The translations under genes and the position numbers were made by a program. The notes below the pieces were generated by a model. It searched no databases. It saw only the letters and a list, made by a program, of their open reading frames with translations, and was not told the DNA's origin. From NCBI GenBank assembly GCA_002633005.1, contig NMRA01000169.1:599387-663386 (forward strand): a DNA stretch of 64,000 nucleotides, read 5' to 3'. Shown here piece after piece: positions 35,601 through 60,700 of this stretch (its first letter is position 1; the number at the start of each line of letters is the position of its first letter). This DNA is from Phoronis australis. Taxonomy: Eukaryota > Animalia > Phoronida.

Positions 35601-38600
35601 AATAATTAAAATAACCTCCCACATAAGATAAACACAATTTCCATGCACTTCTAATTGCAGTAATTCCCACAAACTGTGTCAAGATAAAGTTAACTCTCCC
35701 CGCCCACACCCAAGCATACCTTCGCACTCTTTCTTGTTTTCCTTCAACTTGTGCCCCTTGCGACACGTACACTCGTAGCTGAAGAAGTTATCCGCACATT
35801 CTTGTTGGCAGCCACCATTATTGATGAGACACTCGTTGGTCTCTGTCAGACGAAAACATGGCAATAAAACTCAGTAAAGTTTGTTGAACATTAAACGTAT
35901 AAGCACATATAATCACATGCATTTACATAGAATTAATAGAAAACTTGTGGGTTTCTTATCTATGCTGCTGCTACAATATGGAATTCTCTTAGTCCAGAGA
36001 CGGTCCAATTCACTTAATACTTTCAAAATTAATATTAAAAAGTGGCTGTAATTTACCTAACCTTTGTATACCCTACCTGTCTTAATCAGGTCAGTTTTTT
36101 CATTGTCGTACGTACTCTCACTGGTTACAGTCATCTATTTATTTCATCTCTCTTTGTTAAATTTTCACCATTCTTTGTCATTTATTTATTTCCTTAATTC
36201 TCAACCTGCTTTAATTGTGTGTTTGTTATGTATATTTAATTGTTGTTTTATCACTTCATTGTAATATTTATTTACTGTTTTTTGTTGTTGAGGGCCCTCT
36301 TAGAAAGCATTCCTATCTTTGAAGAGGCCACCCTCATTTTAAATATCACAATAAATAAAAGTAAATAAAATAAATAAAAATGGGGCAAAATCGTTCTCTT
36401 TTGGCATAAACTCACATGAGGTTTATAGCCGTGCATGTGGAAAACAAGCATGAGGTCATACAAACCTCAGGCAGACTCCCGCTGAGCAGTTGCACGACTT
36501 CACAGGAAGTGGGGCAAAAATTCACCTAAGTTCCTTCTCATCTTGCAAAAAGTCAGTTGTGGATAACTGCTTAGTATGTCAGTCTCAGTCTTTATTAAAA
36601 CAAGCTCCAAATGTTTGTATGCGGTCTGCTTTTGCTCATGCGCTTTGGTCGATAATGGTTCATATTTTTTTACTTCCTTAGAATAAAACAAGGTTTGAAA
36701 TTAAGTTTGTGTAATTTTGTTCTTAGGAGTAATGAAAATTTACCCTTACCTGACACATCCAACAGTTTTAGAAGATTTTTTAAAAAGGCACTATTTCTTG
36801 TTTTCACCAGTTAAGAACATCGAATTAATCCCATCCATTGAAAGATATCAATAGAATAAGATTTCATAAATTTGATACAGTCCTGTGTGTATCTGTACTC
36901 GTTTATTGTCATGCAATTTTGGCACATATTTTGTTGGTGAATCACCAGAAATTCAAAAAGTATACTTAAAAATTCAATCGAATTCTGTTGATTTTAAAAT
37001 GTGATGTCACGTAGTGACAGGATGATTTGAGAATACATTTTGAGATGATAGTTAGGTTACAGTAGTTGTAAAATTAAGATTAAGAACATGTTTGTTTTCA
37101 ATCTTGATGAGAAAACAAATTAGAGACCTATGCATTGACTGATTAGCTGTTCATCTTAAAATGGTAATATTTAACGATTTTTACACTTACCATGCAAACT
37201 GGAAGACAACCAAATTGAAAACTTACTATTTAAACTCCAAATAAATGCTCTCCTAACACTTGCACGTTTCTGTGGCAATACGTTAAACAATATGACTCAA
37301 CACTACATGATGTCACAATCAGAGTTCCTTTGCCTAATACAAGGTACCTGAGAGCAGTCTAGACGGCATCATGTAATTCACTTGGAATGCACGCGAAAAC
37401 TTCCCGCGATCTCGCCAATAGCTACACAGATACACCTCAGACAACATCGTTCTTGAGACAGTTTTTCTTTACACTCACCTTTGAAGTTCCCCGAATCTCC
37501 AGCAGGTCCCTGGGGCCCTACAGGACCCTTAAGCCCTGTGTCACCCTTGTCACCTTGCGCTCCTTGGTCTCCCTTGACACCAGTGGTCCCCTGGTCACCT
37601 TGAGGACCCTGGTCACCCTGCGGGCCCTGTGGACCTGGTGGACCTTGATTGCCAACATCCCCTTTAGGACCCTGCGACCCTTGAGACCCTTGTGCTCCCT
37701 GCTGACCAGGAGGACCTAGAAGAAAAACACACACGTGCACTTGGCTAAACGTCATATTTCATTATGGTATCGCTCTTCGATTTCACACAAACAATTGCCA
37801 AAATTGGAAATTCTTCGCTTCTCAAATAGAGCTCAGTTTTTATCACATTTATTTTAAACAGTAAGAAAGGCAAATTTTTCTCAATATTTATTTTTGTTGA
37901 GAAATTAACTGCTGTTATGTAGGACCTTGTTAGTTTTGGGGAACAGTGCATAAAGTACACATAATATCTCCAAGTTTCATGTAAATCCGATCAGCTATTT
38001 CTGAGAAAGATGTTCCAAAGTTAGCCAAAAGCTGGCCATTTCCTAGGGTCCTAAATAACTTTAACATTTTCATATTCTGCATGTCTCCAAAACAGCCTGA
38101 CATAACTTTCACGACAGACAAAAAACAACATCACTGCATGAGGAGAGGCCACAAGGGGTTTGTTAAAGTGACTTAAAAGCAAATTTCTGAAATTTGGTCT
38201 TGCACTCTCACTTCACAAGTATTGAAAACAACTTAGCCACGTAATTATGAATGCATCACAGTAATTTGTATAAATTTCTCAATAACCAGCAGTTATATGT
38301 AATATTCTTGGATACCAAGCACTTTTGCTCAAGTGACATTTAATTATTTTTTAAATGTTGTGTGAAGCATAAGACCAAATTTAAGTCTTAAATAGGCCTG
38401 GAACATGATAAACAGACTAGATTGCAATACTGAAAGTGGTTCTCTACCACTGAAACATAATTCAACCTGCTCATCAGGTATTTTTAGGGTTGGTTCATAA
38501 AGATTTTTAATTTCTGTAGATATCAAAGCATTCTCTTTTGGTTTCAAATTTCAAAAAATACGATCTGTCAACTGCTCCTCGAATTTTCTCCCACAAGGCA

Positions 38601-40593
38601 AATCACATCCACTTATTTAGTATGGTAAGACATAGGCTTACTGCGGCACATTTCCCTTATATGGAAAATGTGACCTTTGACCTGAAGTGACTACAAGCAA
38701 CTGACTGTGAGCGCATGTGCGCATTTATAATAAGCGAGAGGGAGATTAGAAACTGTGGTAACTGCAGTTTTTCCTTAAAAATCGTGAATTTTGTGATTTT
38801 TTCTGGAAATTTCCCCTCAGGGAAAGTGAATTATTCTGTATTAGATGTTGCAAGACGGTACTTTCGTCAGGAATTGTTAAAAAGATATTTTTGACAAGAT
38901 TTCGCGTTCCATGCCTCTTTAAGATGTTTTTCATGAAACAGGAGCCTGTTATGTAGTATGTAAAGTCTTCAAACTGTAACTGAAGCAACAGCCTTACCTG
39001 GGGGTCCTCGTAAACCATCTGGTCCCTTGGGTCCCTGTGATCCTGGAGGACCCTGCTGACCTTGGACACCAGGAGGCCCCTGATTCCCTCTTGGACCTTG
39101 CGGACCCTTATCGCCAGTAATACCACGGTCACCTTGAGGTCCTTTGTTACCCTAGAGAAATTGAAAAAATGCTGAACTGACAGAACAGAAATCAGCCCAC
39201 CTTAGTTACAGGGTGGAGAAACAAGTCATTGCCTGAGCTTGGAATACACAGTGTCTCCGACCCTAAGTTGTGAGCCACAGTTGCTCCAGAACCTGTGCAG
39301 TCATTGGACATTGAGGTCCAGCTTGCCTTATTTTTTGGATTGGATGTAACCCATATGCGAGTTTAGGCTGTGCCTCTCAGTGCTTGGGCACCCCCTTCAA
39401 ACAGTGACCAAGGGAAACGCCGCTTTCATACCATTTTAGGGGCTTATACAGATATTTTACCTCAACATCCATGATTGACCTCGGGTGCAAGATTCCTGAT
39501 ATCAAAATTACATATGAGGGATATCATACTCATAATACTAATTAATTCACATTTCGTGTTTAAGTCCAAACTGTAAACCATTTTGATAACTAATGTAAAG
39601 TTAATATTTATTATCTTGAGCTAATATTTAAAATAAAATTAAGCTTAACTTAATACATTAATATTATGCAAAAATGCTTTACGAAGACAATGACTAAGAA
39701 GTGAAGACTGGTTCATAATTAATTAGGAGTAAAGATTTTACAGTTGAAACTAAACACAAAGTCTGACATCCAAATCATAACACCCTTCAAAGTAGAACAA
39801 AAACAAAAATCTCATTTTAAATTGCAATTCCATCATGATGTACTTTACCGGTGGTCCATTTGCACCTGGGTCTCCCTGGTCACCGGCTGGTCCTGGTGGG
39901 CCCGGTGGTCCCTGTGGTCCAGGAACAAAGTCGACGCCTGGAAGACAGGGAAGATTATAAGGCTACTCAATAGTCCTCAAGTGGAGCTAGTGAATTAATG
40001 TCCTAATTTTGACAAGAATATTTGAAATTCTTTGAATGTTTTGCAACAAAGATCACAAAGCTAGGATATGGCCCAAAGGAGTTCTCACAAACAATGATTT
40101 TTCAATATCTCACCAACTTAGAACGCGGTGTGGTGTTCAACTGAAATTTTATTTTCTAATATTCAAATAAGAGACATGTGGCATCAAATTATGGTTTACT
40201 TTACTAAGTTCAAGTTCTGCACCCTACTAGTAGTTACTATTGGAAAATATTTTGAAAAGGTGGGGGCATCCACAAGTCACAACCATGTTACAAAACCTTG
40301 AAAACAAAAGTATTGATGATTTTTTGTCCAAAATTGGTGGATATTTTACCATAAGAGATAAATAAAAATTATTAGTCTTTTACAGACCACTGGCCACGCC
40401 ACTTGACTTACAGACATGTGGCTTAGGGGGCCACACAAACTTAGAAATATTCAACCACGGCAGATCAAACTACTTGAAAATCATAGCTTAGGGGACCCAT
40501 AGAGAAACCTGAATCCAACACTTAAAACGTGTACTTACTTTGTCCATAAGATATTAACAGTCCTAGGCATAACACAACGGCGAAACCAGCCAT
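32474..40593 (-). CDS. Gene A: type I transmembrane collagen-cbEGF protein (368 aa): signal peptide, ~51 Gly-X-Y, 2 cbEGF, truncated EGF, TM, short tail
   Basis: complement join 40539-40593, 39849-39937, 38998-39151, 37479-37715, 35720-35842, 35213-35335, 33859-33969, 32474-32688 = 1107 nt, all GT-AG and phase-consistent. [24 protein letters not shown]-(GXY)n-ETNEC..-DINEC..-DLDEC..[30 protein letters not shown]..SVLY*. Confidence 0.88.
33859..33969 (-). CDS. Gene A truncated (4-Cys) cbEGF exon
   Basis: [37 protein letters not shown]; ctatag| and |gtatgt. Confidence 0.9.
33995..34116. repeat. ~39-bp tandem repeat, ~3 copies
   Basis: ttcagtgccatgct(a/g)agt.ccaatcaaatcagg.catat. Confidence 0.8.
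35213..35335 (-). CDS. Gene A cbEGF exon 2 (missing from the ORF track)
   Basis: [41 protein letters not shown]; 123 nt, phase 1-1. Confidence 0.92.
35720..35842 (-). CDS. Gene A cbEGF exon 1
   Basis: [41 protein letters not shown]; 123 nt, phase 1-1. Confidence 0.92.
37479..37715 (-). CDS. Gene A collagen exon 3 (237 nt)
   Basis: [19 protein letters not shown]; ttctag| and |gtgagt. Confidence 0.92.
38998..39151 (-). CDS. Gene A collagen exon 2 (154 nt)
   Basis: [21 protein letters not shown]; ctctag| and |gtaagg. Confidence 0.92.
39849..39937 (-). CDS. Gene A collagen exon 1
   Basis: [29 protein letters not shown]; cttccag| and |gtaaag. Confidence 0.9.
40539..40593 (-). CDS. Gene A signal-peptide exon
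   Basis: ctttcag|AATG; [18 protein letters not shown]; |gtaagt phase 1. Confidence 0.82.
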
Positions 40594-40662
40594 TCTGAAA
40601 GTGCAGAGGTTACAATCACATAAACAACACCAATGACATTCATTAGACTGCCTGAGCTATGT

Positions 40663-40818
40663 CAGTGGCGGATTTAGGGGGGGGGGGCAAGGAGGCCATG
40701 CCCCCTAAAATTTTCCCAGATTCCATTTAACAATACGAGGCTGCGAATGTCCGATGGGCAAAATCCTGGCTAACACTCTGCCCTGGCCCCCTAACTCAAA
40801 ATCCTGGATCTGCCCCTG
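40663..40818. mobile_element. Non-autonomous DNA transposon (CAG(T/G)GGCGGAT-type TIRs)
   Basis: cagtggcggatttagg / cctggatctgcccctg with G and C runs inside; a related decayed element sits at about 12435-12590. Confidence 0.6.
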
Positions 40819-41910
40819 TACGTAATGTGTCTCACTTTGGGTTTAGGTTAGTGTCAGCAATACCCTACCATTATTTGGACAATGGTCTTAAACAATATTT
40901 CTGCTCAAAATGTTTACCAAACATTGTAATTATAGTCATAGCTGAGTGTACTGTACAAATCATTCTTAAAAAAGTAATTTCAAAGTAATTTTATTGACAA
41001 ATTTGACTACATGAAATTCCATGCATCATATCATTCGGTTGACTTAGGGGATTTTTCACATGTAGGCCTACTCTTGACTTGTGGCTTTGACAGATTTCGC
41101 ATGTACTCTTGACCTGTGGCTTTGACAGATTTCCTTGTAAATCATATATTTCATTTATTTGTGGAAATGTATCACTTTTCAGGAGAAATGTTTTTGTTTC
41201 CAAGTTACTGAACTAATAAGAAAATTATATCAAATCTAACCCACTGAAGACAATAGTTAACATTAATTCTAGTTCAAAGGAGTCACAAAGGTGTGAATCT
41301 AATAGTGCTTGGCGTCTATTGAACAAGCTGTATGATATATAGTGAAATAGGTTCTTTCTGTGGTTGTCAACGCGTCTGGTATTGTAAGTTGTTGGAAGTC
41401 TTCAGAAACCGGCTAATAGATCTCTGGAAAGGCTTTCTTCAACTTCTAAATGTCACGCGCCCTGCAGTAACTGTTTACGTCACCGCCAATCTGTTCTTTT
41501 TTGTCTGCATGAAAACGTAACTGAACGCCTCTAATGTAACCATCATCTGAGTTCGAAATGACGAGCAGCCGTTATTCGGAATGAGACACTCATACCGGAC
41601 AAACAAAAAGTAACGGCAACCACCACTAGACTGACCACCACTAGACTGACCACCACGGACGGTCTTGGTCTTGCGCCATCTTCCAATAAGACAATCGCTG
41701 TGATCGAGGTGAACTCAATGCTACCACGCTTAACTGTGTCAGTGATAGTTGGCAATCCAACATACTATTTTTGGTAATGTTCACTTATTGTCATTCGCTG
41801 ACTGGTTGAGCTAGTTGGCGGTGATGTAAACAATTACTCGGGCCAGATCATTCCAAACAAGAGAGACTACCTCACCGAAGTCGTTGGTAACCACTTACTA
41901 TTTTCCTTAC

Positions 41911-42050
41911 CTCAAGCTTAGTAACAACAGAACACCTGTTTGTCAAAACTGCACAAAAATATCAACGTTTCGAGGCAACTCGAACAGTTCTTCAGACACA
42001 GTGCCTGGCCAGTTTCGTCTTCTGTTCTGGTGTCTCGTCCAGCCTCGGCT
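41911..42050 (-). other. Probable non-coding 5' UTR exon of gene A (5' boundary uncertain)
   Basis: Strong minus-strand donor GAG|GTAAGG at 41911/41910; the ATG exon at 40594 is preceded by an acceptor, so an upstream exon is expected. Confidence 0.4.
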
Positions 42051-44224
42051 TAAACCCCACCCTTGCTACTCAACTGTATTGAATACACATTCCAAATGCT
42101 TAAATTATGGACCAGTCTAAAAATTCGAACAAGCAGCAATTATGTTAAAAAGCTGTCAACGTACAAACTATTTCATTAATACATAAAATATTAATCGCAT
42201 TATTATATGAATTAAAATAAATGCGAATTCGAGGTTCAAAAATGTATAAAAAGTAGCACGATAGGTCGATTTTCATTAAATTTATCAGTCTAACGTACCT
42301 GCTAATCTTTCTGTTTGCAAGGTAATTGTGTCGTTACGTAACTCCACCCCAAAGCTGTCATTCACTTTCCTCAATAGGATATTGTTTAGTTTTCTGAAGA
42401 CTGCGTTAACGTTGGGTTGAATCACAGGGCGAGGTCGAGTTCTATCATCGGTACTGCTTGTGTCGGGAGATACACACACGTTGATCTCGGGATAGCCATA
42501 AAAAAACACGCGCAGTCGGTATTGATTTACTGGACGATTATTGAAAAACAAAACGTTAAACATTACATTCGTTGGTAAAGAGTTGTAGGCTAAATTCACA
42601 TTCTTTTTAGGAAATTGAAATTAATATTTGCCTTTTTAACGTTTTTGACACCCACGCAAAGACCCTTTAATAGACTAAGAATGCCCTGTGGTGTCGACTG
42701 TTCCGTTTTACATTATTTTCTTTTGATAAGCATCGTGTAAAAGTTTACCTAACTGTCAATCAGCAAGAACTGTGGAAACTATCACAAAAATATTCTATGT
42801 GATTACCAGGATATAGAGAGTCGTTGCGGTGCTTCCGTGCCTTCCAAAAGAAATTTCGGGATGCCTGGAAATGAATTCAGAAAACGACATCAGTCCAGAA
42901 AGACCATTTTCTGGTATTCCTCAGTGTGTTTTTATTAACAGCTATTGCATGGACAGTATTCACCATAGGGGGCTGAGGGCTATACACTTTTTTCAGTGCC
43001 GCGCGGTCCATGGTCTCAGTATGGGCGGTGCACAGCCCGCGTATTGCATGTACATAAGGCAAAGAAAAATAAAACCGATACGAATAACGTGGAATCTGTC
43101 TCATGAAAACAGACTTTTAAGGCCAAAAAGCACAATTGGTATTGGCCTCAGTCACGGAATAATTATTTTTCTTTTTTAATCATCGCTTGGTGAATCGTCG
43201 CGTTTCAAACCTTTCTTACCCTTGCTTACGTGCCTTTGTTCAGCTTTTTTAAAAAATCAAGAAACCTTGGCTGAAATTGATTAACTATTAGCCGATAAGG
43301 TGTCAAATGCCATTCTATTGTTTTATCGATATTTGGCTCGGAACCTTTTGGAGTGAAAAAAATTAGTATGTGCTCGTCTTGATAAAAAGATGTAACCAAA
43401 AGCCTCTCATGCAATAATAGGCCTACCTCATGTTATAACCCACTCGCGTTTATTGAATACTCAACAGTTGCACAGCAGCTACTTTGCAGCAAGTTATTAA
43501 TTAGTTACAGTTGACATAATTTTTGCGTCGAAATAAAATAATCAAAAATAGATCCCATTTTATGGGATTTTTAAAGTCTATGCTGCTGCGGTTGCTGAAG
43601 GTTGGCAGTCGTGGGTTATAACTTCAGAATTACATCTTATAGCCAAAACCAACTGGTAGCTAATTTTCTCCGTTTTCCGTTTCCAGGGGTATAAAAAGAG
43701 AATGATTGTTATTATTATCATTATGATTGTTGTTGTTGTTGTTGTTTTTGTTGTTAGGTGATTTGATAATATACATAATTACCATATGAATACAGTGATA
43801 GGTGCAAAGTACATGCAAAGGGGGTCACTGACCCGAGAATTCAAACAATAGGATAATGAGGACGAAGCAGTATACCTTACATAAATTAATACTTAAATAA
43901 TATTTATATGCGCTAACTGCGAAGCGATACCGAAGCTAGTTTACAGTGAAACAACCGGTGTAGGTGGGATGAAAGGTCATAAGGTCATATATATTATGAC
44001 AAAATAAACTACTAACTGCGCATATAAGAATAATTATGTAAACAATCTAGATAACCAAAATATAAAAAAACAAACTTATTTCCATGGTGGTTTATGCACA
44101 TATTGAATTTTTTAAAAAAATATTACGAAAAAATAATAAATTGTGAATATTTAGACAGGAGGAATGACAGATGTGAAAGAAATGAACTGAAAAAATAGGA
44201 TGAAGTGGTATGCTGGATGACAAA

Positions 44225-44900
44225 TAAAAAGATAAATAAATAAATTAATTACATTAAAATCGAAGTTATCACTTCTCTCATTAAGGCTGAGTAAATATTG
44301 TTTGGTTTGTCATCAAAAGTATTTAGATCTGTAATGTCTCTCAGGTGGCCAGGAAGTGAATTCCACAGAACTATATGCCGTCCATGGTACTGTGAGAATG
44401 GCGTGGTTTAAATGCTGATAAGAGTGATGAAGGAGAAAATATGGGACGTTGCCATGAACAATTTTATGAATAAGATGGAGCTTGAGTTCGTTAACAACTC
44501 GATTTTCAATATTTAGCCACCCAAGAGACTGAAAATGACAAAAACTAATGTGAGTACGAGGGTGTTAACTGAGTACATATTTAATTAATTTGTTTTGAAA
44601 CACCTGGAGCTTTTTGCGAAGACAAATTTTCAAAGTGAAAAACCAATTTGAACCCACATAATCAAATAAAGGAATTATTTACTGAATTGGACAGGGTTTT
44701 ACTGACCTAAGGTCTAAGAAATCTCTATGCTTGTACAAAAAATAGTCTGCAATTGCATTTTCTTGGCTGTCCCGTAAGAGCTCATTATCCATTTGGAGAC
44801 CAAAATAACTTAAGAATGAGCATGAAATGATTACACTGTCGTCACAAGTTACATTAAAATAAACATGGTTTGATTTACTAAAAATAATTGATTGAGTTTT
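44225..44900 (-). mobile_element. Decayed LINE (CR1/L2-like) 3' end
   Basis: Minus-strand remnants resembling the post-RT region (FLSYFGLQMDNEL; VLWNSLPGHLR) with stops and frameshifts, followed by a (TTTA)n-like tail. Confidence 0.55.
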
Positions 44901-47362
44901 ACCAACATGACGGGATAGGTTGCACGCCGTTGCAGCCATCGTTTTATCCAAGTGCAAACGGTCATAAATACAGTCATGTACAAATATATTGTCTTAGCCA
45001 TTAGAACTTTCATGATGACGAATGAATGTCACGATTTTATTTGCGTGTCAGACGGAATTACATTGCTTCGTCGTAAATGGCGTTGTACGGTATACGGCGC
45101 ATGCAAATCAAAGTTGTGAATGAAAAGTGCCATGCACTTAAAGAAGTTTGAAACAAGTGAAAGTTTGCATACGGAACCGACAGACTACAACTGAACACTG
45201 ACGTCTGTTTAACAAAACATGTAAAAAGAGTGGCTACAATACTGGCGTATTGAATGAAGTCACCTAGTATACTGGTATCCTGAATCCGCCCCATTGACGG
45301 TTACTCAGGAAACTCATATTTGAAGACTACAATTCACTTCACTCAACTTATTCTCAGCTACTTCGTGACTTTAAATGAAGATTGGGGGTGTTACGCACCA
45401 ACTATCTTCATTCACCGTGTGACAGGTAGAGAATACTGTAAAGGCGAGCGAGTAATCGCAATGAAGGCACGGCGTTTTTTATCGTGTCAGCAGGGGGCCA
45501 GGGTCGCCTCCTCCCTTTAATTCACCAATGAGCTTTTAACGGGTGATTTACTTCTAAGATTAAAATCTTGCGTTGTAGAATGTAATCTTCTGAAGCTGCC
45601 TATATTATGCTCCCCAAAAGCATTTGTAAGCCGTGCTGGAAATGGGGTAAGCGAGGGGGGGGGGGTGTCAGGGGAGTACACCCACTCTGTTTCCAGGGTG
45701 GAAACTCGGATGCTCATCTTAACATGTGGTGCCGACACCTGAAGCCAAAAGGAAACAAATTACCCAGCATTTTGGACCACGAGCCCTGTGAACGAGCGCT
45801 TAAGCCCGATTTCATGGGCTGCAAAACAAGTAGCCATCATACAATGAGTGAAAGAAGAGTTACTAAGTTGGCCTGACTTCAAGTTAAAATTAAGTATTCC
45901 AGTTATGAATCATATTCATTGCCGGTATTTTTATAAAGTTTATTTCAACATACATATAAGTAGTCATTTTATATAAACAGATATTTATATAAACAGATAC
46001 AAGTTTCCCTTCCAAACAATCTAGCACTAATGAATACTGATTAATAAAAGTTTTAACAAGTTGGAGAACCAGCAATTTTAAACTGACCACCACTGACAAA
46101 ACTCACAGCTCACCCGTGTTCATGCCACACTAGCAAATTCTTGGAAGGCTTCCCAATGGGTTAATTGTTAGAAAATTAATCTTTTATCAGCGCCCCCTGG
46201 CTTTTACAGATGAAACATGCCAAGGTAAAACAATAAAACCTAAACCTTAATCTCCACAAGCCATCCAGTTCATTCATGGAGAGTTGAATCAACCTGGAGA
46301 AACTGAATCAAAAGCATCCTTCAAAACAAGTTGCTATTCAGAAACTTGTTCAGTTTTTGTTCAAACAGTTTTGGTTAATTGAAAGCACACTTCGTATATA
46401 CATAAATAAGACCTTCAATTAATTTACAAGCCTTCTTTAATTTGGTAGATTGACATTTCCTATATTTTCAGAAATTAACCTTTCAGCACCAGAAACATTC
46501 ACATGATGGAGTTAGTATATCACAAACAAATAATTACAACAGTGTAAGCTAGAATAATAGTGTTGCTCATGTAATGGAAAGTAATGTTAAAATGGCCATC
46601 ACCTAGCCTTCCATCACAAAAAAATAACTTTGATTTAGACCACATACAGATACGAAATTGACACTTTGTCAAATTAGAGGGAATTCAAGGAATTTGAAAG
46701 AGCTGCACGTGCGAGATTGTTGGAGACCTGGCGCTATGAATTGAGTTGTCATGAGGTGTCATTTTATTGGCTGAGCATGGTCACAACAAATAACTGTCAC
46801 TGAGTTCTTTGCAAGCACTGAAATCATGTGTCATCTGAGTAAGAAATATCACGTGTCATTGGAGTAGGAAACAAGTTGAAACCAATCAAAAGTTGCTTTA
46901 AAAATAAAGATGTCTCCAGAAACATCCAATAAACCCTGTGACTGTTACAGATTAAAACATTCAAATACTCTTAACACTACTCTGTACCTAAGTACACAAA
47001 TTACAGGCACAATAAACTAGCTAAAGTGCAAACAAAAATACAAAAAAAGAATACTTCTCAAAAATTGACATTCAAAATGACAACATTTCACAAATATAAT
47101 CGATCAGCTACAGTGATGCAGATAAACTTCACAATATGATCGATTGTAACATCAAGTGTCATTGAACCGACCCAGCACATATTGATTAGTGAGGTAAGAC
47201 TTTAGAGGTAGAGAAGACTGATATTATCATAAAAGCTGTTCGTCCACATGCTTGGATTAGGAAAAGATATTTGGTTTATGACAAGTACAGATCATACAAA
47301 AAAACAATACCGACGTTCATCATTGTTATTCAGACCCCAGACATGTGTTAACACCATAACAA

Positions 47363-47516
47363 CAATATGATGACCATAGGTCTGCAATATGATGACCATA
47401 GGTCTGCAATATGATGACCATAGGTCTGCAATATGATGACCATAGGTCTGCAATATGATGACCATAGGTCTGCAATATGATGACCATAGGTCTGCAATAT
47501 GATGACCATAGGTCTG
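47363..47516. repeat. Perfect 22-bp minisatellite, 7 copies
   Basis: caatatgatgaccataggtctg x7. Confidence 0.95.
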
Positions 47517-48326
47517 CCACAGACATTGTCATATTCTATGATGACCTCACTGAATGTCATTAGCAATCTCATTTATGTTTTATCTCAATACAAACTAACA
47601 GACTTACACACAGCTGGTTATGAAACCATGCACATCTCTGACACTAATTCACAGTCAGCTTTGTTTAGTTTGGTTAATGATGTTCAGAAAATCATGAGCA
47701 GAAAGTCTACACATTTTCATCAAATACAAGATGGCATGGACAATCCCAAAGCTGCAGAACTTTCAGGAGTACAACAAAATTTGCTTAACAAAGTTGACAT
47801 AATTCCAAACACCTTTATTAACGTTGCCATGAGGCCAACACCTCCTCCGACCAAATCCAGCAGGAATTTCTGGAAAACTGCAATTACTTTTAAACATTTG
47901 CTTCTGCACACACATAGCTCCATCTGACCAACTGACCAACTGACCAAGAGATCAGAAGATTGTTTCAATTTTTTTACACAGTCTTAACAAAAACTTACGA
48001 ACCAATTGTACGTTTCAGCATGAATACCCCTTAAAACTGCGTGTAAAATCATGAACTCAGACCCAGAAAGTAATTTCTAACAGTGTAGTAGAATGTAATT
48101 TTCTGCCACTCATCAAAATTAAATATCAAAGTTTTACTATTTAACAAGCACTTTATCAGGGAAAACTTTAGGTCTCAGATAATTTCAGAAGAACTTGTCT
48201 CCTTGTATGAATGTCCCAACTCAAACATCCAATTCTCTACTCTCTATTCATCATGAAATGATAGACAAATCTTTACTATCAGATCTAGCATGCAATGGTC
48301 AGTGATTTACAAAAATGCCAATCAAC

Positions 48327-48766
48327 CTATGTGCGTGACCACACAGACAAGCTATGTGTGGGAGAGGAAGGCTCATTGGTGGGCAATGCCGGCAGCGGAG
48401 GGGCCATGAACGTCGCGGAATCCCGATCTTGGGCCAAGATCACCGGCTGTTCTGCTACAGGCTCCGACATAAACACCACTGGCTGTCTAACAGAGGGCGC
48501 TGGAGCTAACGACACCACACGCTTCACGGATGGGACCGCTTTCACCGAATAGACAGGCCTCAGCGAGGGAGTCGATTTCATGGAGCTGACATTCAGGTTT
48601 TCTCTTGTGTTGTATATGGTCTCGGCCTCTCGGTAGATGTTCTCTTTGCTCGATCGTCGCGTGCACATGATTATGATAATAATGAGAAGGACAATGGTCA
48701 ATATGCAGATCCAGATGAGAAGAGCGAGGATGACCCAACGATTGAGAAGATTGTCCATCACATTAA
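48327..48766 (-). CDS. Gene B TM and cytoplasmic-tail exon
   Basis: cttgcag|; TM helix alignable to gene A, ~110-aa tail, TAG. Confidence 0.88.
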
Positions 48767-51700
48767 CTGCAAGTGGTAGTCATAGTTGCATAATATTAGC
48801 ATATAATTAAAGCAGACACAAGCCAACATTCCGCACAAGAAGCAAACTTTTGATTTAGACCACTTACCGCTTAAAAATAATAAAACTGGTCTCAACTCAT
48901 TCCTCACTCAGATGAGAAGTGATTTTTGGGTTTTTCAAAGAACTGACAGTTCGTTATTCCTAAATAGCGACCATGTTCGGCACATAAAATGACACACCGT
49001 GACAAGACAACTTGTAGGAGCTGGTCTCCAACAATAACGAATGGTTAGTTCTTTCAAAGGCACCCTAACTTGACTGAGGTACAATTTGAAAGCAATTTTA
49101 GGATGGTGACTGGCCTGAATCAAAAGTAGGTTACTGTGACAAAAAGAGGTTATAGTTGCTATAGGTAGCAGCGGCAGTAAAATTGAACTAAATTGTTGTA
49201 AAATACACAGTCTAGTTAATCTCAAAAATGTGACTTACACTAGGTGGCATTGAGAACTAAGAATTACATTCAAAAAGAGTGCAAGTAAATTTACTAGCAT
49301 GAGAAAAAGTACTGAGTGGCGCTTCAAAATGCTGATAATTTGAAAGATGTTTTCAACTTTCATCTACTTTTTTTAAAGAAAAAAAAATTATGCTCAAAAT
49401 CGAGCACATCTGAAAACCCACAGAACATAGTGACTGTCAGACATTAAAAGCATTGATTACGTGAGTGAACCTGTACCAACAATGTATACCTCAACACGTA
49501 TTTAAATGAAAAACTAGGCAGTAGCACATCCTAATCCATCTAGTATGCCCAAAGATTTTCTCCAAATTACGTTAAACTCTCGCTAAACAATCAATGTCAT
49601 GTTACTTTGTGTACCTTTGGAGTTAAGACAGACACCTTTGGAGCCAGTTGAATTCTATAGATGCTTCCAGCTCCAACAATTGCAATCACAATCACCATTT
49701 TTGGAATAGTCCTTCATTCCACCAATGAAATTGGAAACTGAACTCTATTACCGTCGATGTGCTCGGGGCCAAACGGAGATGTACGAAAGGTCATCCATAT
49801 GGCAGCCATGCTGAGAGGAGGCAGGGGTCCCGTCTAGTCAAAAACTGATGTCAACAGACACACGATAACCAGCCCAATATTAAATGCTATAATTACCTTG
49901 AGCAGACGATGACTGTGTGTTGCTAGGTAACGTCATACATTGGTAGGACCCGCGGTTGTTGACGCACACGTTTCCTGGACAGAGGCCGGTGGATGTCACG
50001 CATTCGTCCTGATCTGAAACAGGAAGTGACATTTTAGGTCAAAGGTTAGCTACATAATTAAAAGAACGTTATGTATCAAAAAATTCCGCAGTGCCAAGAA
50101 TGTCTGTCTACGGCAGGAATCGAGTAAAATACAGCAAAGTCAGTTTTAAGGTGGGATGTGTGGTTTAAGGTTTTGTTGTTACGACAACAGTCTTGTCAGT
50201 AAAAATTAATAAGTGCCTAATCAAAATATCTTGGTGACAAGCTTCGATAGATAGCAAGTCAAGAAGGAGAGCAGTTGTAGTGATTGCGAGGACAAATAAA
50301 ACAAAACAAAAGAAAAATGTTCAGTTATGATCAATGATAAGCGTGAGTACAAACGCGAGATATAATCAAAGTGAATGTAATTCTTAATTTGTTTTAATAA
50401 CAATAATAATAATCTTTACTTTTTCTTTTGTTTCAAGTTCACAATAGAAGACTACTAAGTTTTGCTAGAGCTTAGAACACTGCTAAGAACTAAACTGCAT
50501 ACAAGAACATAAACCTGAAGAGATTTTCTACAGCTGAAGCCTGTTAGCTCAGAGCCTTCAACGCGTTTTCACTCAGGCTATTGAAACTGTCTATTGTATA
50601 TAGAGATACCTGAGCTAATGAAGGGGAAATGTAATCAGCACTTAGCAAGTCAAAGTCTTTACGTAAATAGCTGACAATTTTTTAAATATCAAAGATCGAA
50701 CTGACTTAATTTTGTTGTTGAAAACACTGTGGTCATATTCTTGAAATTTTAGGTTTAAAACTTTTTTTTTGTAAATTAGACGCCAAGTTGTTAACCACTG
50801 TTTAAGACCAAACACATAGACACCTGGTCACCTGTACAATACATCAGTCTTGGGCATGTGAGGGATTGAAGCTTAAGGCATTTGATGCGGTGACATACAG
50901 CTTTCCTGGGGCTCTAGGGGTAAAAATATACCGATTTATGTAGGTGTGTGTAGAAGGTTTCACTGGAGAATTTTACTAAATAATAATCATGTCAAAATGA
51001 TTCCCACCGCTGCACGTGAGTCTGTTTGCCTCCAGCACAAAACCTTGAGGACATTTACAGATGAAGGCGCCATACGTGTTCTCACACGTGTGACTACACA
51101 GTCCATTCAACTCATCGCACTCGTTGATGTCTGTAAAGAACATATGACATATTAATAATAAATTATTAAAAATTAATGAATTACCTGTATTTCACATGGG
51201 CAAGCTTACCAAGCGTACTTATTACAACTCCAAGAACAAAGCTGCCAGAAGTACATCTCCGTCAAAAACTAAATTTTAATTCACACTATTTACCATCATG
51301 AAATTGGTCTCACTTGGGAAATGGTCACTGAGAGGAAACCAGTTTGACGCGTGTTATCCAAAATGCGAGACTCCTGTAAGTGACTGTTACAACTTTCTTG
51401 TTCCTTCATCAGATTGATTGATTTCTGGGATTTGTTACTATTCGAAACCAGTGTCAGCAAATTGGCATGAGACGGCAGGTCATTTGGTCTCGAGCGATAA
51501 CAAACCCTCAAATTTTCCATGCCCAAATTTACTTCAACTTCCAAAAAGGCACTTGCGCATTTTTTCCTGAACTACACTTGCCAGTAATAACTATTAAGAT
51601 ACCATTATGTTTGTGCTCAAGGCTCTTTAATTTTAACTGGACGTCATGTCAACTCGTAACACTCTTTGTATATTCTATAGTTTGGATAGATGTCCCTCAA

Positions 51701-54700
51701 AGAAAAAATGTCAATTTTGAAATAGAGGTTTGCTGGGATAAGAAAAAAAATAACTATCTGAATATGTGTGTTATTTAATTAACAAATTTTCACTGTGGAA
51801 AGAGTGCAGTATTTAAAGCAACACAGCTGATGTTGGAAATGATGACAGTATCAATATTGTCAATAACAAAATTGTCAATATCAACAATATCAATATCAGA
51901 ATTGTCAAATATATCAATTCTGCCAATATCAACACTGTTAATATCAACATTGTTTATATCACCACTGCCAATATTGACACTGTCAATATCAGTGATAACA
52001 ATATCAACACTGCGAATACAAGAAACATTTATGAGAACACTGCTGATATCAACACTTTTGACATCGAACACATCAAACATCAACAGCTTACCTGTACAAG
52101 ATTTCCCATTACTGGCCAGCTGGAAGCCCTTATTACACTTGCAGTGAAAACTGGCCCAGGTGTTTACACACTCATGGTCACAGCCTCCATTGTTTACAAG
52201 ACATTCGTTCACCTCTGAAATATACCATCACCACCTTGAGTTACAGTATAGTCTTCCACATGATTACCGTTGGGCAGTTTGAAACATTCTACTGACCCTA
52301 GCTAACATTCAACAATGTGATTATCTAGTACAGAGAATGGATTATTGTTTAGAGGTAAGTCACAATTTTTCACATTTCAAAATTTTCAAGTTGTCACACG
52401 GAGTCTCAGTTCTCACAGTCTGCAGCCCACATTTTGAGCACCAGTTTTCTCCACTGAATAACGGGCAACAAACTACTTCTCAAAATGTGGGCACATTATA
52501 TCCGATTACAGCGCAAAATCCAGTGTGAAGCTTACTGCTCTGCGATCAGGTTTATCATTTTACCACAAATAAATGTATTGATCTCTAAGTTAATTCCATC
52601 AAATTGTATATTAATTCTCATCCGAATTCAAGCACCAAATTCTCCACACAACGTAATGATTTTTCTCCCAAAGTATTTTTTGAACAGAAATAATTATTCA
52701 TGAATACGTCAGTCCAGAGACTACAAACAAATGTAGGGTCTCAAAATTCACAAGGGGTCTAGGGACACAAGGGTCTAGTAACACAAGGGGTCTAGGGACA
52801 CAAGGGTCTAGGGACGCAACGGGTCTAGTTACACAAAGGGTCTAGTGACACAAGGGGTCTAGGGACACAAGATGTCTAGAGACACAAGGGATCTGGGGAC
52901 ACAAGGGTCATAACTTACATTTAAGCATGAATTCAGGTAGTTAAGTGGGATTGTGAAGCCCAACAATTGCCCTCATGCTTGCAAACACCCTAAATTTTAA
53001 TCCTGTTCCCATTCAAAAAACAAAAAATGCCTTTGTTCTTTAGCACCACCTAGTGAATTCTGATCCACCCATTAATCCATAAAACTCACCTGTGACCTTG
53101 TAAGCTGGTCCTCGTTCCCCCTTCACACCAGGATTCCCCTGCGGCCCAGTGTCTCCCTTATCACCCTTGACACCACCACTTCCAGTTGGCCCCTTGGCTC
53201 CTACCGCCCCTACATTCCCCTTCGGACCCTCTGGTCCAGGTGGTCCTTTGGGACCAGATGTTCCAGTGTCGCCTTTATCACCCTGATTTCCCTGGTCACC
53301 TTTCGGGCCAGCACTACCAGCTGTACCTGTGAAGAAAGCCAAGAAAAAAATAAGAATTTCACACTAAAACAGACCTGCACAAACCAACTGTGATCACATT
53401 TCCTCCATTGTGTTATTATAAAAGGATGTTTTCAAAGGTTTAAGTGTTAACTGACTTTCAATACATGCAATTTGCACGGAGTTTAGCGTGTGCACTCTGT
53501 GCTGACACACAAAATACCATCACTCTGACATAACCAAACGATTGTAATCAATTGTTTTGCATTACATACAATCATTGTATGACCTCAAAACATGACATCG
53601 TTCCCAAAATATAATCCATTGACCTTTGTCCATTCCAAGCATCTCCTGGAAGTTTTTTAGATGTCTCTACAAAGCTACTACCTGACTGACCAAAAGAGTA
53701 ATCGACATATGATCGAAAGTCTAAACACAACTGCCTTCCACAAATTACTAACAGCAGATGAGATTACATGAGGAAACAATTTATGGACTTTACACTTCCT
53801 CAATTTGTTGGTTTTCATGTCATTGAGGGGTGAAAACCAACACATTGACCTCCGTGAAAGTCAACAAAAGTATGAGATTAACTACTGTGCAATAGATTGG
53901 TATAAATGCCAACAATTTATGTACAGTTGAGAAACACAAATGTAATTATAAGAAACACTGACTTTAAGCACATGTTAATTGAATAAATTGTATCATCTTG
54001 CAAATTCTCTGACCATATATACAGTAAATAATTTTTGATTATTAAATAAAAAACAAAAAATAATTAAGCAAAAATTTCTTTAGTGCTCTTATTTCACTTA
54101 TAAATGATTTTCCAGTTACTGCTACATAAACATAGACTTCCCCAACACAATTGCTTTCAGTAAACACACAACACAAGCTCTGCTTACCCTTCACACCAGG
54201 TGGCCCCTGTGTCCCTTGACTTCCTTGTGGACCCTCTGGTCCTTTAGGTCCTGCATCGCCTCTCACGCCCTGCAACCCTTGCAAACCAGTATCCCCCTTG
54301 GTGCCCTGTGACCCCTTCGGACCCTGATCGCCTTTAGGGCCCTACATGAGATAGAAACCACTCAATGCTCAAATACTGTTCATGTTTTACCAGAAGCTAG
54401 TTAATGTCTTCCTAAAACCATGTCAGAGATGATGTGGTAACATCATTTCTAAAATCTCATGAACTATTTACACCAACCTCCAGCCAATTTGCATTGGCAC
54501 GATGTTTCAGCCCATCACTTTTACAGCCATCTTCAGGTGTTACAGCGTTTGTAGAAGAATGAGCACAGGAGTGTTGTACACTCATGGTGCACTTTTTTAT
54601 TTTTCTTCATGCATAAGGCTAGGATTGAAGTTGGGACCTTTATATTATCAGTGCACCACAGAGTCATCAAAGAAATGACTGGTCAAAATGTTGTGGGCTA

Positions 54701-57700
54701 GTAGTTGGACAGGTGTAAATAGATGAACAGACTTTAGAAATGATGTTAACCGCTAGTTAGCTACATAGTTAGTAGACATAACTGCATCACCCAGCGCCAA
54801 ATACATTTTGAGGACACGTAAACTGCAGAGTGGAGTCAATAAAACACAATAAAATTGTTATTTCAACTTAACGCGTTATGAAACTTTCAAGACAAGATGG
54901 ACACACATTGTCATGATACTCTAAAATGATGACATCATCCTTTGCACCAGTTATTTCCAAGGCATTTTGCATTCAGGATTTTATGTGAAAAAGCACTATT
55001 CATGAAAAGTTTTGGTTGAAACTATGCGCCACCTCTTCTCATGTCTAACATTTCAAACAAGAATCCTGAATCAGAACTGATTTGAATTTGAGTTCATCAA
55101 ATCTCCACAATGTAGCCATTACATCAATCACAGTTCGACCAAACATGTCCTAAATGGATTTGGCAATTTAATCGTCTTCCCATAGTCTGCCAATGTTGTT
55201 AACCTGTAGTTATCTCCCATATAAAATGAAGATTAGTTGGGTCAAGAACAGTAGCCAACTCACCAATTGGCGCGTTTGATAGCACTGCGGTAACTTGCCG
55301 AAAGGCAAACGTGACAGTGAAAGAGTCAAACAAGCTAAAGATTACTATAACTAAAACAAGCCAAAGTGTACTTCTTAATGAAGCTGAGAACCAAACTGAG
55401 GCTATGAGAGCCACAAACAAATATCGTTAACAACTACATCGAAGAGGTCTTGCATAATATGATAAGCTATACTGATGTCAGGCAAAGACAGATCTGAAGC
55501 TTAAACATCTAACCAAGGTCAAACTTTGGGCCAGGATTAAGTTAAGATTGTGACTTGGGGTTATGGCTAGAATTTGACTGAAGGCCATATTGCATTTAGC
55601 ACACAAAATGACAAGTAACTTTCACTTTACTGAGTCTACCCTTCTGCAACAATGATTCGCCAGCTCTTCCCAAGGTCAAGGGTCACTTCAATCTGAGAAT
55701 GCTTTTAATTTCAAGTGTTCCAATTCAAATATTGGTGTTTCTGACATCCAAAATCGNATGTTAATTGAATAAATTGTATCATCTTGCAAATTCTCTGCCC
55801 ATACATACAGTAAATAATATTTGCTTATTAAATAAAAAAACAAAAAATAATAAAGCAAAAATTTCTTTAGTGCTCTTATTTTCCAGTTTTTGCTACATAA
55901 ACACAGATTTCCCCAACACAATTGCTTTCAGTAAACACACAACACAAGCTCTGCTTACCCTTCACACCAGGTGGCCCCTGTGTCCCTTGACTTCCTTGAG
56001 GACCCTCTGGTCCTTTAGGTCCTGCATCGCCTCTCACGCCCTGCAACCCTTGCAAACCAGTATCCCCTTTGGCGCCCTGTGACCCCTTCGGACCCTGATC
56101 GCCTTTAGGGCCCTACATGAGATGGAAACCACTCAATGCTCAAATACTGTTCATGTTTTACCAGAAGCTAGTTAATGTCTTCCTAAAACCATGAAATGAT
56201 ATAGTAACATCATTTCTAAGATCTCATGAACTATTTACACCAACATACAGCCAATTTGCATTGGCACGATGTTTCAGCCGGTCACTTTTACAGCCATCTA
56301 CAGGTGTTACAGTGTTCGTAGAAGAATGAGCACAGGTGTGTTGTACACTCATGGTGCACTTTTTTATTTTTCTTCATGCATAAGGCTAGGATTGAAGTTG
56401 GGACCTTCATATTATCAGTGCACCACAGTCATCAAAGAAATGACTGTTCAAAATGTTGTGGGCTAGTAGTTGGTGTAAATAGATGAACAGACTTTAGAAA
56501 TGATGTTAACCGCTAGTTAGCTACATAGTTAGTAGACATAACTGCATTACCCAGCGCCAAATACATTTTGAGGACACGTAAACTGCAGAGTGGAGTCACT
56601 AAAACACAATAAAATTGTTATTTCAACTTAACGCGTTATGAAACTTTCAAGACAAGATGGACACACATTGTCATGATACTCTAAAATGATGACATCATCC
56701 TTTGCACCAGTTATTTCCAAGGCATTTTGCATTCAGGATTTTATGTGAAAAAGCACTATTCATGAAAAGTTTTGGTTGAAACTATGCGCCACCTCTTCTC
56801 ATGTCTAACATTTCAAACAAGAATCCTGAATCAGAACTGATTTGAATTTGAGTTCATCAAATCTCCACAATGTAGCCATTACATCAATCACAGTTCGACC
56901 AAACATGTCCTAAATGGATTTGGCAATTTAATCGTCTTCCCATAGTCTGCCAATGTTGTTAACCTGTAGTTATCTCCCATATAAAATGAAGATTAGTTGG
57001 GTCAAGAACAGTAGCCAACTCACCAATTGGCGCGTTTGATAGCACTGCGGTAACTTGCCGAAAGGCAAACGTGACAGTGAAAGAGTCAAACAAGCTAAAG
57101 ATTACTATAATAACTAAAACAAGCCAAAGTGTACTTCTTAATGAAGCTGAGAACCAAACTGAGGCTATGAGAGCCACAAACAAATATCGTTAACAACTAC
57201 ATCGAAGAGGTCTTGCATAATATGATAAGCTATACTGATGTCAGGCAAAGACAGATCTGAAGCTTAAACATCTAACCAAGGTCAAACTTTGGGCCAGGAT
57301 TAAGTTAAGATTGTGACTTGGGGTTATGGCTAGAATTTGACTGAAGGCCATATTGCATTTAGCACACAAAATGACAAGTAACTTTCACTTTACTGAGTCT
57401 ACCCTTCTGCAACAATGATTCGCCAGCTCTTCCCAAGGTCAAGGGTCACTTCAATCTGAGAATGCTTTTAATTTCAAGTGTTCCAATTCAAATATTGGTG
57501 TTTCTGACATCCAAAATCGACCAAGGCAAGTAGTTTGGGAAATTTCACAGGTTTGCAAACAAGAAGGTTCTTACCTGTGAACCAGACGGTCCATCGGGGC
57601 CTTTGTCTCCCTTGGTTCCGTTCAGCCCTGGTGGCCCAGGAGGTCCAGGAATGTACTCCACTTTGGAGGTCGTCGTTGGCGTCTCAGTTGTAGTAGGTCC

Positions 57701-60700
57701 AGCAGTTGTCGTGGGATCCTGAAAAGCTATAAAGAGAGCAATAACATTAATTTTATAAACTTCCTTCTTGTCCTTGACATTAACCAGTTGGCTGCGGAGA
57801 GAATTCAACAGTTAGTGGATGATAGAAATGTCAAACTGCCTCCATGAGACGGACGTTAATTCAAGAGAGCAAACTGACTTAATTTTTCTTTATTCTCAAA
57901 AAGAATGTTAGGTATGTTGATTATTAACTTATTTCGGGTTTTATGCCAAATTAATTCGCAAAATACAAGGCATTTTTGTAAAAAATCAAATCAGTGGTTT
58001 ATTAGTATATCACTCCATACGCGAAAACTAGGCAATTCGAAGCAAAATCTCAACAGTGTTTTTTAGGCATAATGTAAAAGTTTTTATTTGAAGCTTTAGT
58101 AAAATTCACCGTGGGAGTGGGAGGGTTATTTTCCTGTGAATGTATCTTTCTTGTAGGGGGAAATTTGACTTAAAAAACATGGTCACAGTAGACAAAGACA
58201 CAGTAGTAAGGAGCATATTTTTAGAATTTTCAATCTTTGTCCTTTCAGAAAATAAATACTGTTAATGGTTGACAAAGCATATTTTTTATATCTGACTTAC
58301 AGCTGAAGTCATTTATTAAGGTTCTAGATAACCTTCAATGATCAAGGCCCACACTTGGATGGAATGGATTTAATCTACCGAGAAAGCACAAGACCAGACC
58401 AGCCCCAGTACACCACAGTACAATACCAGACTAGCCCCAGTATACCAAAGTACAAGACCAGACTAGCCCCAGTATACCACAGTACAAGACCAGACTAGCC
58501 CCAGTATACCACAGTACAAGACCAGACCAGCCCCAGTATACCACAGTACAAGATCAAACTAGCCCCAGTATACCACAGTACAAGACCGGACCAGCCCCAG
58601 TAAGTGCCCAACAAGTGCACTTCAACTTGCAATAAAAAATGTCGTTGATGTGAGAGACAATAAGTTTCAACATACAGTATGAATTGAGCTATAACTTGCA
58701 AATACAGTAACCTTTACTCAAATTCAAACAAAATACTGGCTAAAAATAGTTGTTTCTGTCAATTTTCATATGTTCGCAGAATTGCCAAAAATGTTCAAAT
58801 TTCATTGTGAGTTTGTTGATGACATCTGTAATGTAAAGATTTCAAATTGATGTACTTGGGTAGCACATTTTCCGTTACACAAATTTGTTAAAGACACGAC
58901 ACTTCTTGTTGTAAACATTCCGTTCCTAACCTTGGAACAAAGTAATTGAGGCTCGACAGAACATTGGTGAAGTAACTGAACAAGAGACATGATTAAAAGA
59001 CATACGAAATTTCGAAACACACTTGTTTCATTCTCGAGCGTGACTTTCCCCCCATTTGTCATTCTTCGCAGTACTTCAAGCCTGCCGTGTCCCACTGTGT
59101 ATGTTACAAGCTTTTGCTCTGTGGTGGTATTAATGCGTCATTTTATCATGATGTCTCTTAGTCAGATACTTTACCAATGTTCAGTTTTGCATAAATAATG
59201 AAGTACTATTTTGTTTCTTGTTTACTGTTCTTGAAAACTTTGATAACATAAAATTTTACTGTTCCGTCATATTTTGTTCTAACTTTAAGAAACTTCAATA
59301 TAATTTGAAGCGGTCAAATTTTGGAAGGGGTAGAGCCATAGTTTTCTGAAGCATTTTGGACTCATTAGGTGTAGAACAGGAAACCCAAAACCTCTCCATA
59401 GCCCCCTGCCAGCGAGATTTCCTTTGATCTCATGCAAATACCAACTTTCCTCAGTTATCTACAGTGCCAATGAAAAACTACCATGCTGAGCATGTTAGGT
59501 TTATTGACTCAGATTACAAACCACACAGCTGCCTGGCTATACTGAAATATTGTGTCAGGTAGTTTTTGCAATTCTGTGTTTCTGAAACACAAAAATTTGT
59601 CCGTAAACAATTACGTTACAGTATCTTGATGTGACCAGTTTAACAGCACATGTATTGTTCAGTGGTGATTCCTGCAGTCAGACCAACAGATGGCGTGATA
59701 AGGGCTACTGCTAACATAACTGATATGGCTTGAGCCCATCATTAGAGGGTAATCGTACAGTAACCTGACTTGTCAGAGAACAGTCTCAGCCACATTTTGA
59801 GTTTCCGTATTCTGCCTAATGTAGTAAACTCGTGGTAACTAAAATACAGTCCAACAGGATTTGTCATTGAGAGATAACCAGCGACTGAACTGAGCACTCC
59901 AGTCAAATTTCGGAATGGGTCACCCAGCTGCCAGATTTTTAGAAGGATACGGTGGACAAGTGATATTTCTCAGAAAAGCTTGGATTGAACAGACTCGTAT
60001 TAGTAGCAAGACAATCAACCTTTGAAAAAAAGAAAAAAATTCAATTTTTGCAATTATTTCCATGCAATAAGTGAAGAATTGCCCCAAATAGGCTGATATT
60101 AAAGTTCTCTTCGCTTGGGACAGAAAATGCAAATTGACATAGAAAAAACTTTAGTTTTGGCAATACTGTGGGAACCGACTCGAGGACAACAACTACAGCC
60201 CCACAGATGGAGCAGCGGCACACTTACGTTCGATCTGAACTCCGATGTCATAGCGGTACTGCGCATCGGCGGCAGATTCTCTCAGCATGTAAATGCTACC
60301 CGTCTGAGGGACGCCAGACGCACTCACTAGGTATCTGTAGATCTTTTCATTCACCTCATTCGGTCCAACTGGTTTACGGCCAATTGGAAACGAAGACGAG
60401 TAGGATGCAAATGCCATGACATCTCCACTGAACAACAGGGTGCTTGGTAAGGGTATCTGCAATACAACACCCACTGGTCATCTAGATTCATTTATTAGAA
60501 TTCCTGATGACACAAAGGTGCCATGAAACAGCTTTTATTAGTCAAAAAGTAACTTTAGGTCCAGGCCGCAGTAAAATCTTACTAATTTAGGACACAATAA
60601 GGTGGACAGGTGAAATTTTATTATCTCATTTTTTTCACCGAACAAATACATGTTCCCTCAGTTTTAAGCTATATACTACAGCTACCACAATACAAAGTGT

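Follow-up and report, generated by a model that had tools for sequence, protein, structure and literature searches.

In a stretch of 64,000 nucleotides (nt) of the Phoronis australis genome (contig NMRA01000169.1 of assembly GCA_002633005.1, positions 599,387 to 663,386; hereafter the window, to which all coordinates refer), two tandem paralogues, here called genes A and B, were found on the minus strand. Both encode collagen-EGF proteins whose predicted topology is that of type I membrane proteins, with the N-terminus outside and one helix near the C-terminus. The collagen rods of the two chains are matched in length, and the placing of charged residues along them favours one specific arrangement of A beside B. 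We put the chances at about even that A and B fold into optional mixed trimers, with B as the leading and A as the trailing chain, A forming homotrimers where B is absent.

A six-frame scan of the window for Gly-X-Y runs of at least five triplets returned seven runs, every one on the minus strand. With exons that have GT-AG ends, these belong to one open frame in each gene (Table 1): gene A (63967-48327, minus strand) codes for 628 amino acids, and the coding part of gene B (40594-32474, minus strand) for 368. The A protein consists of a predicted signal peptide, a head of ~158 amino acids, a Thr-rich linker, 50 triplets, three EGFs, a predicted membrane helix and a tail of ~113 amino acids, and the B protein of a predicted signal peptide, 51 triplets, three EGFs, a predicted membrane helix and a tail of ~36 amino acids. 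Each rod is single and uninterrupted and runs directly into EGF1. In both genes two of the EGFs are full calcium-binding domains (Ca-EGF), and the third lacks its last two cysteines, with four left; as this truncation is common to A and B, it predates the duplication. Pfam was scanned with 13 exon stretches, the other coding exons being signal peptide or pure Gly-X-Y. The collagen triple helix family (PF01391) scored above the cut-off on both 237-nt exons, and at least one of EGF_CA, FXa_inhibition and cEGF did so for each of the six EGF exons. No COLFI match was found in the 13 stretches, and neither gC1q nor NC1 was matched in the scanned exons of A or B. The gene models likewise hold no C-propeptide, NC1 or C1q domain in either chain. 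A candidate exon near 49616-49800 was discarded (RNA depth of at most 0.09 in the bin covering most of it).

The sole strong hydrophobic helix of either protein is located after the EGFs, and a signal peptide is predicted at the N-terminus. The type I prediction follows from the hydropathy peak of this helix (3.5 in A, 3.39 in B) and from basic residues C-terminal to it in both chains. Neither the topology nor the signal peptides had been noted in the original prediction, which was made from the letters of the window; as a predicted feature, the type I topology is a more secure novelty than mixing of A and B. Both predicted cytoplasmic tails have tyrosines near the membrane (48327-48660 and 32474-32580, minus strand) that could be sorting or phosphorylation signals, and the tails are otherwise dissimilar.

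The original prediction had read the fixed rod length and exon sizes of these diverged paralogues as a sign of a heterotrimer or a molecular ruler. The gene models confirm the rod split that it described, as 8+17+25 triplets in A (then three non-Gly residues) and 8+17+26 in B. Sizes do agree, as do phases, for the collagen exons of 154 and 237 nt and for the EGF1 and EGF2 exons of 123 nt, and the rods begin with the caps quoted there (VDFVPGP in A, VEYIPGP in B). The X/Y residues differ as widely as had been stated (in-register identity 21/100 vs 18.9 +/- 3.5 for triplet shuffles), and identity of the Gly codons in the rods is also at chance level (16/50 vs 13.7 expected); thus, no alignment at the level of triplets is inferred. 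The reported absence of intron similarity was borne out by blastn of A against B, in which four matches (one dispersed repeat, one between the 3' regions and two reversed between collagen exons) included no homologous intron match. EGF1 and EGF2 together are identical at 44 of 81 positions, the offset from the first glycine is the same for all 16 EGF cysteines, and a conserved Trp of the predicted membrane helix has an offset of 293 vs 294. Chance-level X/Y identity, EGF identity and matched spacing together indicate that the duplication is old and has not retained any net change in length.

Matched lengths mean that mixing of A and B is likely to be possible. The equal exon sizes, however, are weak evidence for co-assembly. 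The 123-nt size recurs inside each gene (EGF1 and EGF2 are both 123 nt in A and both 123 nt in B), so that its match between the genes is uninformative, and three exon pairs are unequal: the first collagen exon (152 vs 89 nt), EGF3 (117 vs 111 nt) and the membrane helix exon. The caveat of the original prediction, that shared ancestry alone could explain the match, therefore holds, as equality of exon size cannot separate co-assembly from ancestry.

Chain register was assessed from charge pairs. In collagen, Lys pairs with Asp or Glu at i+2 (leading to middle, middle to trailing) and i+5 (trailing to leading), and misalignment lowers the count (PMC11923368; PMC numbers here and below refer to excerpts of the papers). 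In a first pass that included Arg, the arrangements BAA and BBA (leading, middle, trailing) exceeded 50/50 shifted controls, and AAB and ABB did not. With Lys only, pair counts were 17 for AAA, 19 for BAA, 14 for BBA, 13 for AAB, 10 each for ABA and BAB, 8 for ABB and 7 for BBB. With B leading and A trailing, 11 pairs are inter-paralogue, four from B to A at i+2 and seven from A to B at i+5. Once one shift with the same geometry had been set aside, none of the 49 non-equivalent circular shifts gave more than 8 inter-paralogue pairs, vs 11 in register (Lys only). Triplet shuffles reached 11 with P of 0.0004-0.0006 over three arrangements, and within-exon shuffles with P of 0.002. With Asp at triplet 16 of B, the allele read there, P becomes 0.0014 (Lys) or 0.023 (Lys and Arg). 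A null of real collagens was drawn from 3,548 distinct 51-triplet windows of 87 of the 120 collagen-like matches listed, those of similar charge content being kept. Unrelated collagen windows replacing B reached 11 in 3/561 and 16/895 (Lys only), and those replacing A in 0/62 and 0/124, which came from 3 and 5 proteins, respectively.

The i+5 pairs are lopsided, with seven from A to B, one from A to A, one from B to B and none from B to A. Of the Asp residues of B that are not shared with A, 6/7 lie at i+5 of an A Lys (P 0.002), or 6/8 with the allele read in RNA (P 0.005), a placing that is not expected if KGD motifs of the ancestor were simply retained. The homotrimer BBB, with its 7 pairs, has no more than shuffles do (P 0.17), and one A as trailing chain beside B doubles the pair count of B. 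The register test is moderate evidence for a specific A/B arrangement. The original co-assembly claim is partly supported, through salt-bridge register and not through exon sizes.

Genes A and B are both live, as judged from three stranded bulk RNA runs with the same species label (X5, X6 and X7; ~18-19% of each used, depth per exon base derived from bins). The 237-nt exon of B has a depth of 57 in X5, 47 in X6 and 0 in X7, and that of A 6.7, 4.5 and 2.9, respectively. Three further B exons have depths of 31-63 in X5 and X6 and 0 in X7, and three further A exons have 1.2-3.4 in X7. In X5 and X6, where both genes are transcribed, RNA of B is ~8-11 times that of A, and the remaining run (X7, at low depth) has A alone. 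Four of the eight B introns are supported among 15 of 173 RNA joints listed. Of 18 coding differences examined, 14 are synonymous; the set comprises 17 seen in reads or contigs, or between the exon copies where read rows exist, and one additional difference between the copies. Judging by RNA depth specific to its strand and by a poly(A) signal at 45944, the 3' untranslated region of gene A appears to be ~2.5 kb long, to about 45800 (45800-48330, minus strand).

Several observations weigh against mixed trimers. When Arg is counted, the shuffle P rises to 0.011-0.012 and the fractions for unrelated collagen windows to 21/589 and 53/939, and with the RNA allele of B as well, one of the 49 shifts ties. 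Four of the 11 pairs, those from B to A, involve lysines common to the KGD motifs of A and are explicable by ancestral KGD, from which the raised ABA/BAB count of 9 can also stem. A local one-triplet slip of B relative to A would account for four of the seven i+5 pairs. The i+5 sub-test was picked after the data had been seen, and the register test is without calibration on known paralogues that do not co-assemble. A is self-sufficient, with a P of 0.004 for the 17 pairs in AAA. The levels of RNA, with B far above A in two runs and absent in the third, fit expression in different cells as well as mixed trimers, and bulk runs cannot show expression of A and B in the same cell. The RNA joints listed include no A junction besides the 4/8 of B, and the junction of the membrane helix exon is not in that set.

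If mixed trimers do form, the membrane anchor would gather three chains in the endoplasmic reticulum, and the helix would zip outward from the EGF end. Anchor-led assembly is proposed because C-propeptide, NC1 and C1q domains are missing from both chains, and trimers can form with a transmembrane domain in place of the C-propeptide (PMC7015688, citing Bulleid 1997). Lys-Asp/Glu pairs would then set the chain register. The collagen helix rises by 0.286 nm per residue, and the trimer would be a stiff stalk of ~43 nm on a short Ca-EGF foot. A would bring a globular head and a long tail and B neither, so that mixing would set the number of heads and tails per stalk, from zero to three heads. On its own, B would have few salt bridges but more proline (30% of X/Y positions vs 23% in A), and A would be stable alone. 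For a B:A ratio of 9:1 in one cell and random mixing, arithmetic gives mostly B3 trimers, with nearly all A in B2A. The likeliest role of such stalks, as a guess by analogy, would be to tie cells to the extracellular matrix. A broader proposal is put forward only tentatively: A and B may represent a natural class of type I membrane collagens that lack a trimerisation domain, start the helix from the anchor and encode chain choice solely in the salt bridges of the rod. After the duplication, A would have kept its lysines and B gained aspartates one triplet on, completing a third interface that the homotrimer leaves open and tuning the heads and tails per stalk.

Alternatively, A and B may be separate homotrimeric type I membrane collagens, with equal lengths inherited and the charge match due to ancestry and chance, an account that we consider a serious contender, if somewhat short of probable. 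Length would be inherited because a Gly-X-Y exon can change only by entire triplets, and selection acts against such changes; exon sizes are also common to vertebrate fibrillar collagens that do not co-assemble, and the 123-nt EGF exons recur within each gene. Transcription of A without B in X7 and the large difference in level elsewhere agree with this account, and each chain could fold alone, A with eight KGD/KGE motifs of its own and B with its richer proline. Separate homotrimers do not, however, predict the i+5 asymmetry, and chains in one membrane without a selection domain would be expected to mix if co-expressed.

An obligate heterotrimer of fixed stoichiometry, after the manner of C1q or collagen IV (the examples given in the original prediction), would fit the tandem genes, the equal lengths and the charge complementarity. 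It is nevertheless unlikely, and in our estimate very much so: B is at depth 0 in X7 with A present, the ~8-11-fold excess of B over A in X5 and X6 is far from a 2:1 ratio, and no chain-selection domain (NC1, C1q or C-propeptide) is present in either model. The ruler, in which both rods independently span the same distance of ~43 nm from the membrane, for instance to a matrix layer or an apposed cell, is also improbable. From cap to membrane, the ectodomains agree in length to within one residue even though the EGF3 exons differ by 6 nt, as a ruler would require, but the tip of B is bare and A adds a Thr linker and head, so that their reach differs, and charge complementarity is left unexplained.

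The match in length also depends on a second copy of the 154-nt exon of gene A, absent from the original prediction, inside a 1.79-kb direct duplication flanking a single N at 55757. A real duplication with both copies spliced in would give A 67 triplets and undo the match in length. Both copies are whole, as are their splice sites. However, the copies adjoin the N, and a contig of DNA run X1 over 54712-55756 has a word depth of 41.5, vs 47.2 and 49.8 on single-copy contigs. The X1 differences listed there are all upper-copy alleles, including that at 54228 (44.3 of 44.3), and no go-back joint is present among 15 of 40 joints listed, though the RNA depth of A is low; the X1 evidence also comprises 40 of 206 letter differences listed. 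X1 equals the window without difference over 3,289 nt elsewhere; it may be the source of the assembly and is not independent of it. The near single-copy depth and the upper-copy alleles suggest that the second copy is probably the result of two haplotypes set in tandem at an assembly gap, and a spliced-in duplication is highly improbable.

Table 1. Exons of genes A and B and associated features in the window.
Feature	Position	Strand	Evidence
Gene A exon: start codon and predicted signal peptide (22 amino acids), phase 1	63901..63967	-	sequence, splice sites, hydropathy
Gene A exon: head domain, first half	62708..62952	-	gene model
Gene A exon: head domain, second half	60228..60456	-	gene model
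Gene A exon: Thr-rich linker, cap, triplets 1-8	57575..57726	-	gene model, exon domain scan
Gene A 154-nt exon, triplets 9-25, upper copy	55959..56112	-	gene model; its alleles listed for DNA run X1
Gene A 154-nt exon, second copy, probably other haplotype set in tandem at gap	54188..54341	-	3/154 letters differ; single-copy DNA depth
Direct duplication, 1.79 kb, 96.6%, around N at 55757; likely assembly artefact	53972..57519	.	copies 53972-55756 and 55758-57519
Gene A 237-nt exon, triplets 26-50	53090..53326	-	gene model, Pfam; stranded RNA depth in X5, X6, X7
Gene A EGF1, 123 nt	52092..52214	-	Pfam FXa_inhibition/cEGF/EGF
Gene A EGF2, 123 nt	51008..51130	-	Pfam EGF_CA
Gene A EGF3, truncated to 4 Cys, and linker	49897..50013	-	EGF_CA positions 3-29 of 43; Cys offsets
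Gene A last exon: predicted membrane helix and ~113-residue predicted cytoplasmic tail	48327..48766	-	hydropathy 3.5; RNA depth
Gene B non-coding first exon	41911..42037	-	RNA joint 40594-41911; read ends at 42037
Gene B exon: start codon and predicted signal peptide	40539..40594	-	gene model, RNA, hydropathy
Gene B exon: cap and triplets 1-8 right after signal peptide, no head domain	39849..39937	-	gene model; RNA depth
Gene B 154-nt exon, triplets 9-25	38998..39151	-	gene model; RNA joint to next exon
Gene B 237-nt exon, triplets 26-51	37479..37715	-	gene model, RNA, Pfam
Gene B EGF1, 123 nt	35720..35842	-	RNA, Pfam
Gene B EGF2, 123 nt	35213..35335	-	RNA, Pfam
Gene B EGF3, truncated to 4 Cys, and linker	33859..33969	-	EGF_CA positions 2-29 of 43; RNA joint
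Gene B last exon: predicted membrane helix and ~36-residue tail	32474..32688	-	hydropathy 3.39; RNA depth tracks other B exons

The head domain of A matched no Pfam family, and none of 37 homologue candidates scored. A search of 1.84 billion representatives gave six matches to it, all of them artefacts of repeats or low complexity, and the only metagenome locus is a chance match of 25 residues on DNA that looks bacterial. Single-exon fold models of the head have a predicted local distance difference test score (pLDDT) of 47 for the first half and 46.5 for the second. Its strand-like pattern (60228-62952, minus strand) may resemble that of an unnamed beta-sandwich domain of invertebrate proteins. 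The rod of A contains an N-glycosylation sequon at triplets 3-4 (57575-57646, minus strand) and an RGD spanning triplets 17-18 (55959-56112). In B, an allele at 39085 in X5, X6 and X1 yields an RGD spanning triplets 15-16. An RGD inside a folded triple helix is usually hidden.

Dispersed repeats at 52425-52505, 40660-40820, 38200-38900 and 36000-36350, where DNA word depth runs from the thousands into the tens of thousands and both strands have RNA, are likely short mobile elements in the introns of A and B. Minisatellites with units of ~22, 32 and 77 bp are found at 47363-47517, 58383-58602 and 63328-63561. A plus-strand multi-exon RasGAP gene of the nGAP/DAB2IP/raskol group (~11800-28734) lies tail to tail with gene B; among 84 matches to one of its exons, the best are from molluscs (up to 79%), with a nemertean at 73%.

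The closest known relatives in build are the EGF-collagens of the brachiopod Lingula anatina, in which 17 genes combine collagen and EGF domains, some of them in tandem and four represented in the shell proteome; such genes were also counted in pearl oyster (PMC4595640). The enrichment of EGF-collagens was confirmed by PMC13425148, and those of the Lingula type are described as shell-matrix fibrillar, with two or more collagen domains (PMC9290575). Like A and B, they combine collagen with EGF_CA, FXa_inhibition and cEGF, have no COLFI, are duplicated in tandem and occur in a lophotrochozoan host. Compared by description, A and B differ in having one short uninterrupted rod (50/51 triplets) and a predicted C-terminal membrane helix. 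Neither a membrane anchor nor chain composition is mentioned for the Lingula proteins in the excerpts of the text and supplement of PMC4595640 examined, figures aside, and the topology of A and B suggests re-examining them for overlooked anchors. A search with the B 237-nt exon gave 5084 collagen matches, and no EGF is present among the 120 listed; searches with single exons recovered no orthologue of A or B. Database proteins of the A/B build, unannotated, may well exist. No description of a type I collagen-EGF membrane protein was found in the literature searched, which leaves most subscription journals outside.

Membrane collagens with a rod tethered by one helix, as predicted for A and B, are described as type II proteins: the MACITs (XIII, XVII, XXIII, XXV), which fold from N to C from coiled coils, ectodysplasin A, colmedins and class A scavenger receptors (PMC7848082). 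In contrast to these, A and B have no N-terminal cytoplasmic domain or N-terminal helix, and their orientation is predicted to be opposite; the triple helix of MACITs is interrupted, whereas that of A and B is not. An engineered procollagen (Bulleid 1997, as cited in PMC7015688) resembles A and B in having a C-terminal membrane anchor instead of a trimerisation domain. That protein is an artificial construct, whereas A and B would be natural and have an EGF spacer. CCBE1 also combines Ca-EGF and collagen in one protein, but is secreted and has EGF before collagen, whereas A and B have collagen before EGF and then the predicted membrane helix.

Optional mixing as proposed for A and B has precedents. 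Collagen VIII and CL-K1/CL-L1 form both homo- and heterotrimers. The same is true of collagen I (PMC5353611). In these, however, chains are chosen via terminal globular or neck domains, which have no counterpart in A and B, and C1q and collagen IV have a chain-selecting globular domain (gC1q and NC1, respectively) of a kind not matched in either chain. Should the heterotrimer fail, the type I architecture stands and the equal exon sizes are ordinary. If it is true, A and B would be a small natural system for asking whether an anchor and salt bridges are enough to nucleate the helix, set the register and select chains. Terminal domains are usually held responsible for chain choice, and membrane collagens are described as type II (PMC7848082); the A/B pair would contrast with known collagens on both counts.

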